A stretch of 14,441 nt of DNA, taken from NCBI GenBank assembly GCA_048939245.1, contig JBHLPR010000057.1, positions 1-14,441 of the forward strand. Direction: 5' to 3'. The notes under the pieces are model-generated. The model was not told the DNA's origin. It did not search any database and saw only the letters and a program-made list of their open reading frames with translations. The DNA comes from Promethearchaeota archaeon. GTDB lineage: Archaea > Asgardarchaeota > Hermodarchaeia > Hermodarchaeales > Hermodarchaeaceae. Numbering within the stretch: position 1 is the stretch's first letter; each line of letters opens with the position of its first letter. A program made the translations under genes and the position numbers. Below are positions 3,305-11,062 of the stretch, one piece after another.

Positions 3305-4303
3305 TTAGATACTGGTGAAATGCTTGAGCACATATAATGCCCGAAGGGTAATCCATTTTGAGGGGTTATTCTTTTGCTCAATGTCATGCCAGAACTTGCC
3401 ATTGAATGTGTGTTTTAACAACCATTTGCCATCGGGTTGCTGGGCATGAATGATCACATCAAGCGATTCTTGAATTCGAGGATCTCTGACGCCTAATCGA
3501 ACGAAAGTGCTGAGAACATCTAAGATATCGGAATTGTAAAAGATCGGAAATCCGAAGCGTTTCCACCCAGTCTTTTCCTTTCGGCTTCCATCAGGATTCC
3601 GAAGATACTTGTAGATTTGATTCTCTAAAATTACCTCAACGATTTGGTCAATGATTTTGTTGATTTTAGGGGAACGGTGTTCTGGTGGAAAGACTGAGAA
3701 TCCCTTGAGAACTTTGCAAAGCCCCATATAGCAAGCCTGGGGAAAGACGCCGTCAGGGTTGATTGGGTAAGCGCGGCATTTCCAGCCCCTAGCAGCAGGA
3801 TCATAATGGTCTATAAGAAATTGGATGGTTTTCTGGGTCCGAGGGTCATCAAGGTAGCCAAAGCGAGACAGATAATAGAGAATATTTGCATCAAGACAAC
3901 AGGTATCTCCGATTTTACTTGCATACCCGCGTGGGGTTTTCGGAAGTGTGGTCCTGAAGTGTCCGGAATTAAGTTGAAATTTAAAGAGGTGTTCAATTCC
4001 CTGTTTGATTTCCGGTATAGAGGGAACACCTAATTCCGCGAGTATGAGAAGGGTGTGGGTGGTGGCTTTGTATTTGTGGGCATAGATTGTATTAGGTAAA
4101 TCCCAGTAGCCTCCAGGAGCTTGGGCTTGAAGAAAAGCTTTGACAAGAGAGGATTGAAGGATCGCTTTCTGGGTTTTTTGCACTTCGGAATCCGAAATGA
4201 GTTTATCCTGAAGAAGGTGGAGTGCCCAAAACCGTACACTAGGATTTGATGGCTCAAGGAGCCAATCGATAACCTCTGGACGGGCGAGCTTATGATAGTT
4301 CAT
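3305..4303 (-). CDS. Prenyltransferase/squalene-oxidase-repeat (alpha/alpha toroid) protein of unknown function
   Basis: N-terminal IDWLLEPSNPSVR, QW-like repeats AQAPGGYW, FQLNSGHF and AQQPDGKW, FGFPIFYNSDILDVL and C-terminal PSKWITLRAL. I prefer the ATG at 4303 because the ATG at 4327 lies inside a TATA-like box. Confidence 0.8.
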   Translation of the reverse strand: MNYHKLARPEVIDWLLEPSNPSVRFWALHLLQDKLISDSEVQKTQKAILQSSLVKAFLQAQAPGGYWDLPNTIYAHKYKATTHTLLILAELGVPSIPEIKQGIEHLFKFQLNSGHFRTTLPKTPRGYASKIGDTCCLDANILYYLSRFGYLDDPRTQKTIQFLIDHYDPAARGWKCRAYPINPDGVFPQACYMGLCKVLKGFSVFPPEHRSPKINKIIDQIVEVILENQIYKYLRNPDGSRKEKTGWKRFGFPIFYNSDILDVLSTFVRLGVRDPRIQESLDVIIHAQQPDGKWLLKHTFNGKFWHDIEQKNNPSKWITLRALYVLKHFTSI

Positions 4304-4324
4304 GAGTAGGAATAGGGACTGGAA

Positions 4325-4331
4325 CATAAAA
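4325..4331 (-). promoter_or_regulatory. Candidate TATA box (TTTTATG) implying a leaderless transcript starting near ATG 4303
   Basis: The box ends 22 nt before ATG 4303, a spacing typical of leaderless archaeal mRNAs. Confidence 0.45.
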
Positions 4332-6650: not shown

Positions 6651-6968
6651 GTGTCCAAACGCGAGCCCAAGAAACGATATTGGCGACGAGGAATCTATCT
6701 TATCGCTGGTATTTGTGTAGGAATAACGGTTATGCTATTGCCCGTCCTAGTCCACAACATGATGGGCTCGGCTTCGCCATTTTTCACTAGCTTCACAGAT
6801 TTCCGCATCGTTGCTTCTGAAACGATTCAATCTCCGATTGATGCAATTCTTGAACTTATCTGGCTCGCACTTCCTGGTATTTTTGTAATCTTGGTTCTTT
6901 CCTGGATTGCTAGCCGTCGAACCCGATGGTCAGGTTATGATGAAGCTGTGAAATGGACGCGCCGCTAA
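6651..6968 (+). CDS. Small 2-TM membrane protein, hypothetical
   Basis: GTG start preceded by SD-like AAGGTGA (6638-6644). Basic N-terminus, two hydrophobic helices and a basic C-terminus fit the positive-inside rule. Confidence 0.75.
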   Translation: MSKREPKKRYWRRGIYLIAGICVGITVMLLPVLVHNMMGSASPFFTSFTDFRIVASETIQSPIDAILELIWLALPGIFVILVLSWIASRRTRWSGYDEAVKWTRR

Positions 6969-7084: not shown

Positions 7085-8863
7085 ATGCGAATGGTAGCGT
7101 CAGAGCTTCGAAAACGGTACCTACGATTTTTCCAAAAGCGAGGTCATGCAATCATTCCATCCGCTTCGTTGATTCCACAACTAGATCCCACTGTTCTCTT
7201 CCAAAGTGCGGGAATGCAACCGTTAGTGCCCTATTTGTTAGGTCAACGACACCCAGATGGCAATCGCCTCGTCAATGTGCAAAAATGTATCAGAACCGAC
7301 GATATCGATGAAGTCGGAGACACCTTTCACCTCACTTTCTTTGAGATGTTAGGTAACTGGTCATTGGGTGACTATTGGAAGCAAGGAGCCATTGAAATGG
7401 CAACGGAATTCCTCCTTGACCCTCAAGAGGGACTTGGACTCGAAAAAGAATACTTGCACGTGACCGTCTTTGAAGGAGATAGCCAAGTTTCCGCTGATGA
7501 AGAGGCAGCACATGCTTGGGAAAATCTCGGAATTGCACGTGACCACATCCACTATCTATCTTACAAGGAGAATTGGTGGGCTCTAGGTGATACCGGACCC
7601 CAAGGACCTGATACCGAAATTTTTGTCGATACCCTCGAACCAAGTTGTTCAAAGACATGTCGTCCCGGTTGTGGATGCGGGAAATACGTCGAAATTTGGA
7701 ATCTTGTTTTCATGTCTTATGACCGTGCAGAAGATGGAACACTAACACCTCTCAAGAAGAAGAATATAGACACAGGTATGGGCCTAGAACGTGCCTTGCA
7801 GGCTATAAACCAACTTCCTAGCGTGTATGAAACAGATGTCTTCAGACCTATTGTGGAGAAAATAAAAGAACTCGCCCAGATTCAAAATCCTTCAGCAAAG
7901 GAGCAAAAGACGATTAGAATCATCGCAGACCATATCCGTTCCGCAGCCATGGCCCTAGCAGACGACCAGGGACTTGTACCGTCTAATGTGGAACGTGGCT
8001 ACGTAATTCGACGATTACTACGAGTCGCTATTCGTAAGGGATTGCAGCTGGGAATTGATCAATTCTTTCTGACAAAATTGATTCCTGCGGTTATCGAGTG
8101 TCTCGCGGATGAATACGATGAACTTCACCGAAATCAAAAGCATATTCTGATTCAAATTGAAAAAGAAGAAAAACGGTTCCGGAAAACCCTTCGTAGAGGG
8201 CTTCGCATCGCAGAAAAAATTCTCAAAGAGAAAGGAGTGTTAACAGGAAAAGATGCGTTCACGCTCTTTGCTACATATGGTTTCCCCACTGAAATGACTG
8301 TTCAAATCGCTGAAGAAAATGGCCAGAAAGTCGATTTAGAAGAATTCCGAAAAGAGTTCGAACGGCACAGACAAATTTCCCGAGATGCCACACAACAAAA
8401 ATTCGCGAGCGGGCTAGCAGACCACTCCGACGAAGTCATTCGCTTGCATACAGCGACCCATTTGCTCCATGCTGCACTTCAAAAGTTTGTAGGAACTTCG
8501 GTTTACCAGAAAGGGAGCAACATCACTAACGAACGGTTACGTCTTGATGTGCAATTGAATCGTAAACTAACTCCGGAAGAACTCAAGCAAGTGGAAACAT
8601 GGGTTAATGAAATCATAAAGCGTGATTTACCCATAAGTTTCGAAATGATGTCCCCGAAAGAGGCGCGGAAGGCGGGAGCGTTGGGATTCTTTGGTGAAAA
8701 GTATGGCGAACAGGTAAAGGTCTATTCGGTGGGAAACGTGTCCAAAGAAATTTGTAGTGGTCCCCACGTTTCTCATACTGGCGAACTGGGAAAATTTACA
8801 ATAACCAAGCAAAAACGTATTGGTGCTGATACTCTTCGATTACGGGCTATTGTTGAACCCTAA
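7085..8863 (+). CDS. alaS: Alanine--tRNA ligase, short (592 aa) form without the C-Ala domain
   Basis: DPTVLF..AGMQPL, QKCIRTDDIDEVGD..HLTFFEMLGNWSLGDY, EIWNLVFM, IDTGMGLER, IADHIR, PSN..RGYVIRRLLR, TYGFP, editing-site HTATHLLH and EICSGPHV. Confidence 0.96.
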   Translation: MRMVASELRKRYLRFFQKRGHAIIPSASLIPQLDPTVLFQSAGMQPLVPYLLGQRHPDGNRLVNVQKCIRTDDIDEVGDTFHLTFFEMLGNWSLGDYWKQGAIEMATEFLLDPQEGLGLEKEYLHVTVFEGDSQVSADEEAAHAWENLGIARDHIHYLSYKENWWALGDTGPQGPDTEIFVDTLEPSCSKTCRPGCGCGKYVEIWNLVFMSYDRAEDGTLTPLKKKNIDTGMGLERALQAINQLPSVYETDVFRPIVEKIKELAQIQNPSAKEQKTIRIIADHIRSAAMALADDQGLVPSNVERGYVIRRLLRVAIRKGLQLGIDQFFLTKLIPAVIECLADEYDELHRNQKHILIQIEKEEKRFRKTLRRGLRIAEKILKEKGVLTGKDAFTLFATYGFPTEMTVQIAEENGQKVDLEEFRKEFERHRQISRDATQQKFASGLADHSDEVIRLHTATHLLHAALQKFVGTSVYQKGSNITNERLRLDVQLNRKLTPEELKQVETWVNEIIKRDLPISFEMMSPKEARKAGALGFFGEKYGEQVKVYSVGNVSKEICSGPHVSHTGELGKFTITKQKRIGADTLRLRAIVEP

Positions 8864-8908: not shown

Positions 8909-9403
8909 CTAGATATCCTTCTGATCATCCTTTAGCGGGAGTGGCATGATATACATTTGGGAGATGTATTCCGAACCACCGCAGGCACATTCACCTTCTT
9001 TTTTGAAAATGAAGTCATCTTGTTCCCAGACCCGTTCTCTGGTTCGGTTGCATTCCTGACATCGAAGCTGCACCACGACACCGATCTTCTTGTATTCAAG
9101 GATGTATCGATTGAGACGACTATTCACTGTGCCCGCTACTCCATATACAACCATGGATAATGCAAATGTTATGAACATGACATAATAGAACCAACTAGGA
9201 AGGAAGAGCGGTTCAGTGCTCCATAGAAAGAAGAGAAATTGGGTATAAACAAGAATCCCTAATTGTAGCATCAAAGCAATCAGAATGGCAGTAGAGAAGT
9301 AGCCCATGAAGCGACTGGTCCGCGCATAGGACTTAATTCGATTTACCAATCTACGAAGCTGATCAATTGTGGGTTTAGGTTCTTGCCATGGTTCTACGGT
9401 CAT
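8909..9403 (-). CDS. 2-TM membrane protein with a C-terminal Zn-ribbon-like domain
   Basis: Two long hydrophobic segments, then RCQEC...RERVWEQDDFIFKKEGECACGG...ISQMY. Confidence 0.8.
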   Translation of the reverse strand: MTVEPWQEPKPTIDQLRRLVNRIKSYARTSRFMGYFSTAILIALMLQLGILVYTQFLFFLWSTEPLFLPSWFYYVMFITFALSMVVYGVAGTVNSRLNRYILEYKKIGVVVQLRCQECNRTRERVWEQDDFIFKKEGECACGGSEYISQMYIMPLPLKDDQKDI

Positions 9404-10020: not shown

Positions 10021-10644
10021 ATGTCAGGCTCAGACAAAGAAGCCATATTGATTCGTGTATCTGAATTCCTATCAAAAGCCGTCAACGATTTAGCCGATGC
10101 ACTTAACACTGTTGCTAAACAAGTTACTGAGTTTCAAAAAAGCCTCAATAAGATTCGTAGCGATTTGAAGAGTGCGCAAGTTACACCTATGAGCGCAGCC
10201 AGCACACCATTGATGGCAGCCGAAATTAGCACAGGCGGCCCCTCATCAGATGCAATTTTCGATTTTCTTGAAGGCGATTCAGCCTCCATTGCCACGGCCG
10301 AAGCCGGCGGTGATGCTGAATCCATTCTTTTAGGTGAAGTTACAGCTGCAGCGGTACCTAAAGCCCCTGCAGAAATCCCACCTACAGCCCTGCCCGCAGC
10401 TGAACCACCAAGTGCACCACCAACTGGACCACCTACCGGACCCCCCAAAGCACCAGCTGCTGGACCACCAAAAGCGCCACCAACTTCCCCACCGAGTGCA
10501 CCTCCTGCAGGTACTACTAGTCCACCTCCTGCCGCTACTCCTGTTGCAGCCCCTGCAGTGGCTGCCCCCACTCCTGGAATTGCAGGTCTTCGGAATGAAA
10601 TGATGGCAGAAATCAAGCGGATCAAAGAAATCTTCGAGACCTAA
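10021..10644 (+). CDS. Hypothetical protein: N-terminal coiled coil, acidic DAIFDFLEGD motif, Pro/Ala-rich repeats and a C-terminal amphipathic helix
   Basis: Own promoter and SD, heptad pattern at residues ~8-50, PPxx repeats, terminal GIAGLRNEMMAEIKRIKEIFET. Confidence 0.85.
   Translation: MSGSDKEAILIRVSEFLSKAVNDLADALNTVAKQVTEFQKSLNKIRSDLKSAQVTPMSAASTPLMAAEISTGGPSSDAIFDFLEGDSASIATAEAGGDAESILLGEVTAAAVPKAPAEIPPTALPAAEPPSAPPTGPPTGPPKAPAAGPPKAPPTSPPSAPPAGTTSPPPAATPVAAPAVAAPTPGIAGLRNEMMAEIKRIKEIFET
10405..10512 (+). repeat. Nine tandem in-frame 12-nt units encoding PPSA PPTG PPTG PPKA PAAG PPKA PPTS PPSA PPAG
   Basis: Read directly from the sequence. Codons differ between units while the 4-residue period is kept. 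Confidence 0.85.
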
Positions 10645-10789: not shown

Positions 10790-11062
10790 CTAAGTTGACA
10801 AGCGCCAAATAGTGTTACTGGCGAGTATGTAAAACATCTCATCCTTGTAAATCACTAGCGCATGATGGTATTTGGCTACTGCCAGAAAGGTTTTGATCTT
10901 TGTTTCCTCGCCATCACGGTACTTCATCTCAACCGTTCCACCGACAGAGCCTTTATTGATACCGAGCTTGTCAATGGCTCGTTCATCCACAATTGGGATC
11001 TTAAGTGCTTTCGCTTCATTGTAGACTGCTTGTCGGAATGCACTAACTGCAGGTTTTGACAT
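10790..11062 (-). CDS. Small hypothetical alpha/beta protein (90 aa)
   Basis: ATG with SD-like GGAGAGA upstream and a TATA-like TATATAT at 11125-11119. Globular-looking composition; fills the gap between its neighbours. Confidence 0.75.
   Translation of the reverse strand: MSKPAVSAFRQAVYNEAKALKIPIVDERAIDKLGINKGSVGGTVEMKYRDGEETKIKTFLAVAKYHHALVIYKDEMFYILASNTIWRLST

Follow-up and report, generated by a model that had tools for sequence, protein, structure and literature searches.

A widespread Asgard archaeal protein family with an extremely constrained C-terminal helix and exchangeable anchors

The gene and its locus

The window, the whole 14,441-nucleotide stretch of DNA that was analysed, carries on its forward strand a stop-free frame at 10021-10644 (stop codon 10642-10644) encoding a protein of 207 aa. 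This ORF is a genuine gene. Its dN/dS was 0.10 over the whole length, calculated from nine distinct same-genus coding sequences at saturated dS. A gene for a 90-aa alpha/beta protein lies 146 bp away on the reverse strand (10790-11062) and is convergent with it. An earlier note on this DNA had placed the ORF at 10021-10644, the motif DAIFDFLEGD at 10249-10278 and the start of the terminal helix GIAGLRNEMMAEIKRIKEIF at 10576, and all three coordinates proved exact.

The window neighbours are housekeeping genes, encoding an S9 peptidase, a DUF92 protein, a phosphoribosyltransferase, purine nucleoside phosphorylase, AlaRS, a NUDIX hydrolase, a class I LysRS and HflX. The AlaRS ORF (7085-8863, +) is only 592 aa long and comprises the catalytic domain and SAD. 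No C-terminal domain is encoded downstream, so this is a short form or a split gene. Three further ORFs of 340, 105 and 164 aa, at 3305-4327 (-), 6651-6968 (+) and 8909-9403 (-) respectively, had no Pfam match above threshold.

The host genome (2.5 Mb, 122 contigs, 88% complete) is Hermodarchaeia-like, and the nearest relatives of the gene were found in MAGs named Hermodarchaeota or Hermodarchaeia. It encodes lokiactin, profilin, Vps4 and ESCRT-III, in keeping with the earlier suggestion of an Asgard host with actin and profilin.

Searches of Pfam (E <= 0.1) and NCBIfam found no family for the 207-aa protein, and about 120 listed database relatives contained no Pfam domain. PDB sequence profiles returned designed coiled coils and Pro/Ala linkers only, and no PDB relative. 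Matches in the ESM Atlas were confined to unnamed Asgard clusters. An exhaustive phmmer search of 1.84 billion representatives gave 14 matches at E <= 0.001, several of which were Pro-rich low-complexity sequences and not relatives. When the 22-residue end helix was used as the query in a local HMMER search it retrieved only itself, and ungapped matrices were used thereafter. As the earlier note had anticipated, the family is missed by domain searches; this is because it is mostly disordered.

Architecture and conservation of the protein

An AlphaFold2 model built on a 21-row alignment showed no globular fold (pTM 0.24). Residues 3-51 (10027-10173, +) were modelled as one long helix with a pLDDT of about 90. 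Read off the sequence, the hydrophobic residues between positions 10 and 49 keep an unbroken 3-4 heptad spacing, and R12, V13, F16, L24, F38, L42, D48 and L49 are conserved columns. This helix, which has a dN/dS of 0.058 in the same nine sequences and at the same saturated dS, is probably an oligomerising coiled coil. It is confined to the soluble forms of the family.

A disordered region separates the long helix from a short one at residues 77-83, which covers the FDFLEG part of the acidic-hydrophobic motif DAIFDFLEGD (residues 77-86; 10249-10278, +). Residues F80, D81, E84 and G85 are invariant in close homologues, and the family consensus is hydrophobic-F-D-F-L-E-G. Related motifs are EALFDVALGE in the membrane-fused forms and GFDFLAAE at the N-terminus of a second family, both described below. 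Another short motif, AESILLGE (10315-10338, +), has A99, E100, I102, L103, L104 and G105 invariant in 15 close homologues and was not seen in distant family members.

Disorder was predicted from about residue 84 to 186. Most of this region is a Pro/Ala-rich arm (residues about 113-185; 10357-10575, +) with a pLDDT of 44-65 and no secondary structure. The arm is built of PPxAP and GPPx repeats in variable number, and its length and repeat type vary by lineage. P[ST]AP occurs between 0 and 7 times across the family, with two copies of PSAP in the window protein. The longest Pro run in the 207-aa protein is three. No motif is conserved in the arm across the family, only PP doublets, and it therefore resembles a spacer rather than a series of binding sites for profilin or UEV. 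Its dN/dS of 0.18 (same sequences, saturated dS) is that of the least constrained of the three segments compared.

The protein ends in an amphipathic helix with a putative docking function (residues 186-207; 10576-10641, +), modelled as helical at residues 187-206 with a pLDDT of about 87. Its hydrophobic face spans about 180 degrees, with a hydrophobic moment of 0.39-0.51. The net charge of the helix is 0 in the 207-aa protein, within a range of 0 to +2, and four acidic residues are conserved. The end helix is letter-for-letter identical in 15 close homologues, and its core residues L190, M194, E197 and K202 are invariant down to 30% overall identity. With a dN/dS of 0.005 in the nine same-genus sequences, again at saturated dS, it is the most constrained part of the protein.

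The earlier note had read the protein as an N-terminal heptad helix, DAIFDFLEGD, a Pro/Ala-rich linker and a terminal helix. Both the sequence and the model bear out this reading, and the four-part layout is a conserved family trait that is kept by members at about 30% identity. The conservation of the terminal helix, on which that note had made its proposal depend, was likewise confirmed.

Distribution and exchangeable anchors

The family profile matched 170 of 301 sampled Asgard genomes, including 62 of the 90 high-quality ones. Among the matches listed, the named homologues all come from Asgard MAGs (Loki, Odin [OdinLCB4_007640], Heimdall, Hod, Thor, Sif and Hermod). The 207-aa protein thus belongs to a strongly conserved and previously undescribed Asgard archaeal family.

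Not all members are soluble. In GTDB family f21 (Heimdallarchaeota or Hodarchaeales in NCBI records) the family match covers the last 130 residues of 559-570-aa proteins, whose first 360 residues contain about 11 hydrophobic segments. A coil, EALFDVALGE, the Pro arm and, as end helix, SIAELRGEMLKELRRLREIFKEE follow this membrane domain. The membrane-fused genes include L037 3825-5537 (+) and L038 3819-5522 (-) and 6104-7783 (-), with a membrane domain of about 360 aa that matched nothing in Pfam or NCBIfam. One Heimdall/Hod genome carries two membrane-fused paralogues in tandem. In lineage f15 a single N-terminal TM helix replaces the membrane domain. The membrane-anchored examples that carry a lineage name belong to MAGs of Heimdall, Hod, Thor and Hermod.

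Since the anchors differ while the rest is kept, the invariant unit is made up of FD motif, arm and end helix, with an anchor that can be exchanged. In at least some lineages, the attachment of arm and helix to a membrane domain puts this module on the cytoplasmic side of the membrane. The conserved neighbours of the membrane-fused genes encode a PIN-ATPase-KH protein, a tRNA-splicing endonuclease and ribose-5-phosphate isomerase. These were considered as functional partners and rejected, as they look like housekeeping synteny.

A 90-residue neighbour of the soluble form

Clustering covered every ORF up to about 9 kb from a family member at about 30 loci. The 90-aa protein was the sole neighbour conserved across families. 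Its gene adjoins the soluble family gene in 19 fetched loci from 7 GTDB families, being convergent in f1 (which includes the window), f18 and f20 and divergent in f9, whose records are named Lokiarchaeota.

The occurrence of the two proteins matches closely. Both were found in 15/18 cases in f1, and both were present throughout f2 (4/4), f18 (6/6) and f20 (3/3). In f9 the soluble family protein was found in 60/68 and the 90-aa protein in 62/68, and in f23 the figures were 7/7 and 6/7. By contrast, lineages with anchored forms alone yielded no 90-aa protein: f21 has membrane-fused members only (21/21) and f15 single-TM members only (4/5), with the 90-aa protein at 0/21 and 0/5, respectively. 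The 90-aa protein is therefore a probable partner of the soluble form. As both it and the N-terminal helix are specific to soluble forms, we infer that it works with the N-terminal helix and not with the end helix.

AlphaFold2 modelled the 90-aa protein with a pLDDT of 87 and a pTM of 0.78, in the order alpha, two strands, alpha, three strands. It matched nothing in Pfam, NCBIfam or PDB sequence profiles. A fold search with the model gave no clear PDB match (best E 0.1 with Foldseek; best Z 4.4 with VIA-align, wide). One Loki-family genome has four copies of the 90-aa gene. One of these, at L119 (G030 contig 56) 5349-5615 (-), lies about 0.8 kb past genes for ESCRT-III, Vps4, ESCRT-II and EAP30, with a Nip7-like PUA gene between.

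A second family with the same end helix

The same genome encodes a 154-aa protein of a second family (G000 contig 71, 16296-16757, equivalent to L137:4297-4758; - strand). It opens with an N-terminal GFDFLAAE, followed by a coil and a Pro-rich stretch; the end helix, whose last residues are FLARRRAALE, precedes an acidic tail. Alignment of the two family profiles with hhalign gave a probability of 94.8% and an E-value of 4.9e-8 over 17 columns, which are exactly the end helix. The two families thus have a docking helix and an FDFL-type motif in common. Some second-family members (for example of the GGLMGELKSLLAARRKK type) look nearer to the F-actin-binding motif (FAB) of VASP than the 207-aa protein does. 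Neither the best 120 of 176 and of 227 database hits nor 200 genomes showed the end helix joined to a gelsolin or GTPase domain, although such proteins may rank lower in the hit lists.

In three GTDB families the second family lies 4-7 kb from genes for Vps4, ESCRT-III and ESCRT-II. The genes between it and Vps4 differ and are unrelated (SIS, PfkB, aminotransferase, Thg1, MFS and VTT). Loci of this kind are L168 and L169 (f12), L170 (Odinarchaeum LCB_4), and L171 and L172 (f14). Separately, in f18 the 207-aa family and the second family are encoded about 8 kb apart (G038 C1 2286805-2295146; G047 C58; G070 C24).

Proposed mechanism and candidate partners

Anatomy, conservation and exchangeable anchors together support a general mechanism in which the protein is an adaptor made of an anchor, an arm and a docking helix, and we consider this highly probable. 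The 50-residue heptad helix would most likely zip copies together, and would probably also hold the neighbouring 90-aa protein. The Pro-rich stretch would act as a long flexible arm. The end helix, perhaps aided by the FDFLEG motif, would dock on a conserved cytosolic protein. In other lineages, where a membrane domain carries the arm and helix, the same module would work at or near the inner membrane face.

For the docking partner, an actin-family protein (lokiactin or a paralogue) is our tentative preference. Direct gene linkage is one reason for this choice. In f9 an actin paralogue is encoded downstream of the family gene on the same strand in 10 of 10 fetched loci, either immediately next (126-235 bp away) or beyond a single PIG-L gene. 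This paralogue scores 291-297 bits on Pfam Actin and is the second-best actin of those genomes; the main lokiactin scores 441-445 bits and is located elsewhere. The conserved order may reflect a single inherited event, and the 126-235 bp gaps do not prove co-transcription. In f1 (including the window), f2, f18, f20, f23, f30 and f7, the roughly 9 kb around the family gene contained no actin gene, and the same holds for the membrane-fused genes in f21, f15 and f6. The idea of an actin-associated factor put forward in the earlier note thus finds weak support in the f9 gene lying directly upstream of an actin paralogue, but has no such linkage to draw on elsewhere. In all f9 loci the actin paralogue is followed by a winged-helix-like protein of about 120 aa without a Pfam match (L045 1324-1686 [-], with equivalents in L095-L103). 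A homologue of that protein is encoded in an f7 genome 1.7 kb from the 90-aa gene (L118 2941-3288, +).

Motif comparison is another reason. A 14-residue matrix was built from the family's end helix alone and used to scan the 7342 ORFs of the host genome (1.06 million matrix windows). The VASP FAB (sequence from PMC10340426), a pre-stated comparison, scored 6.9 bits, and only 82 of the 1.06 million matrix windows score as well (8e-5 tail). The earlier note had seen a resemblance to this segment by eye. The matrix agrees to the extent of placing FAB in its tail, but the end helix is without the basic cluster of FAB. A WH2-like end helix, which the note had also proposed, was not upheld, as the VASP GAB scored -16.7 bits and the LKK[TV] motif is absent. 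Actin is also preferred because soluble multivalent and membrane-anchored forms both make functional sense for a filament, and because the extreme constraint on the end helix fits a very conserved surface. With actin as the partner, the soluble oligomer would cross-link or regulate filaments, and the membrane-fused form would tie them to the membrane. Docking is envisaged on the model of the arcadin-2 end helix on crenactin and of the VASP FAB, which together with the coil bundles F-actin. We regard it as very unlikely that the end helix of both families is the archaeal counterpart of the Ena/VASP F-actin-binding motif itself.

The main rival partner is Vps4. Here the end helix would be a MIM1-type motif that binds the Vps4 MIT domain, so that the protein recruits, concentrates or competes for Vps4 and the fused forms do likewise at the membrane. 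The helix sits at the extreme C-terminus behind a flexible linker, as such a motif would. With the family-only matrix, the best non-self match in the genome was the C-terminus of an ESCRT-III protein, SELEKEIERLKEEG (16.1 bits), and the other host ESCRT-III tail, RELERLKKEVKE, was among the top 25 matrix windows. A post hoc pattern, E-[LI]-x-[RK]-[LIM]-K-[KE] within the last 20 residues, occurs in three ORFs only, namely the two ESCRT-III proteins and the 207-aa protein. A helix of this type also ends the ESCRT-III tails of five other Asgard genomes, and Asgard ESCRT-III tails have been described as MIM1-like, with Ile replacing Leu (Lu et al. 2020, PMC7240154). Against the consensus (D/E)xxLxxRLxxL(K/R), residues M194, I198, I201 and K202 of the end helix fit. 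However, the invariant E197 stands at the consensus Arg and R191 at the first acidic position; Asgard ESCRT-III tails deviate from the consensus in the same way. Amphipathic helices rich in Lys and Glu are common, and convergence may explain the likeness; a reciprocal matrix built from the ESCRT-III tails of other genomes ranked the 207-aa protein only 157th of 7342. A MIM1-like helix, which the earlier note had offered as its alternative, does at least as well as FAB at motif level. The body of the protein gave an hhalign probability of only 1.3% against 13 Asgard ESCRT-III proteins. Genomic context is divided: the second family carries the helix within 4-7 kb of Vps4 in three GTDB families, but the intervening genes are unrelated housekeeping genes, and at about 35 loci of the 207-aa family no ESCRT-III or Vps4 gene was found within about 9 kb. 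When residues 1-82 of Vps4 (its MIT domain; 24-row alignment) and residues 172-207 of the 207-aa protein were modelled as a complex, the ipSAE was 0.02; run without controls, this prediction speaks neither for nor against. On balance Vps4 is an unlikely partner, but a serious rival to actin.

The two remaining explanations need no filament or ESCRT protein. The end helix could dock on the 90-aa protein, forming a closed two-part system without an actin or ESCRT partner. The very tight neighbourhood and matching distribution of the two genes favour this, and the small alpha/beta protein, confidently modelled, could offer a groove. Yet the membrane-fused lineages keep the end helix and FD motif almost unchanged where the 90-aa protein was not found (f21 and f15), the second family has the same helix without this neighbour, and the 90-aa protein co-varies with the N-terminal helix instead of the end helix. 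We thus hold a closed pair to be quite unlikely. Alternatively, the end helix could lie in the plane of the membrane, as in MinD or FtsA, making the protein a membrane spacer or crowding element. Its broad hydrophobic face and hydrophobic moment would suit this role, and the membrane-fused relatives do put the family at the membrane. A net charge of 0 argues instead for a protein target rather than lipid; the charge runs from 0 to +2, with four conserved acidic residues. Its invariance also far exceeds what lipid binding needs, and a protein with 11 TM segments has no obvious use for a second membrane anchor. In-plane membrane binding is accordingly highly improbable.

Significance

The family bears on how Asgard filaments or the ESCRT machinery are linked to the membrane. 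It is widespread in the phylum, its 20-residue helix is extremely constrained, and its anchors are interchangeable between a coiled coil with a 90-aa partner, one TM helix and an 11-TM domain. If actin or Vps4 is the partner, the family could be a new component of that system. The only Asgard actin regulators named in the literature cited here are profilin and gelsolin-type proteins. Should the end helix of both families prove, improbably, to be the archaeal counterpart of the Ena/VASP motif, Asgard archaea would possess coiled-coil-multimerised and membrane-anchored actin-filament binders, served by a dedicated 90-aa cofactor without a clear PDB fold match. With profilin and gelsolin as the first two, these would make up a third class of actin regulator in Asgard archaea, and possibly a forerunner of EVH2. 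If the partner is neither actin nor Vps4, the family still defines a new Asgard-specific two-gene module.

Comparison with known systems

Membership of the Ena/VASP, WH2 or ESCRT-III proteins was ruled out because the defining features of each were looked for and are absent. No EVH1 domain was found in the 207-aa protein (Pfam E <= 0.1), whose N-terminus is a single long helix. The WH2 arrangement of a helix followed by LKKT/V is absent too, as the end helix runs to the C-terminus, and the protein contains no LKK[TV] or LRKV as in a WH2-like GAB. An ESCRT-III (Snf7) core gave no Pfam Snf7 match, in line with the low hhalign probability above. Profilin-type GPPPPP runs are likewise missing, PPP being the longest run and the repeats consisting of PPxAP/GPPx doublets. 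The lack of LKKT and of long poly-Pro, both entered as caveats in the earlier note, was thus confirmed, while its suggestion of a profilin-binding Pro region found no fixed profilin-type motif. According to published work, the binding of polyproline by Asgard profilins is weak or absent (PMC8410842). A role as a P(S/T)AP late-domain adaptor of ESCRT-I was also considered and rejected; the motif is not conserved and is absent in several family members. A search for UEV gave no match in the 88%-complete host genome or in any control genome.

Like the EVH2 region of Ena/VASP (GAB, FAB and a tetramerising coil; PMC10340426), the family joins a probable oligomerising coil to a Pro-rich region and to a short amphipathic helix. 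In an alignment, VASP FAB and the end helix coincide at G, L, E, M, A and R. The coil is C-terminal in Ena/VASP but N-terminal in the 207-aa family, and the basic RRRK cluster is absent here although present in the second family. Homology is not demonstrable. The MIM1 tails of ESCRT-III proteins (Vps2/24/46 class, Asgard included; PMC7240154) are likewise terminal amphipathic helices after a flexible linker, and have the core hydrophobic-x-x-E-[IL]-x-[RK]-[LI]-K in common with the end helix. They differ in that the end helix is more hydrophobic and continues I-F or I-M.

Arcadin-2 of Pyrobaculum (PDB 5LY3, PMC5173319), a crenactin regulator compared by its published description, is also an archaeal protein of about 200 aa with a C-terminal end helix (its residues 187-203). 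That helix is its only mapped interaction element and binds the groove of an actin homologue: the last 17 residues occupy the hydrophobic groove of crenactin (PMC5173319). The arcadin-2 gene lies beside the actin gene. The match therefore extends to protein length, helix position and, in f9, an actin-adjacent gene. Unlike arcadin-2, the 207-aa family is actin-adjacent in one lineage only (f9, 10 of 10 loci) and not in the window. Neither a Pro-rich arm nor a membrane-fused form has been described for arcadin-2.

For the membrane-fused relatives, a further parallel in layout is offered by tethers. Those of the ZipA and TonB type consist of a membrane anchor, a Pro-rich spacer and a C-terminal binding element. 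The terminal element is a folded domain in these proteins but a single helix here, and there is no sequence relationship. By analogy, the membrane-fused members would work in the same way, with an anchor, a long Pro-rich spacer and, at the end, an element that captures a cytosolic partner.
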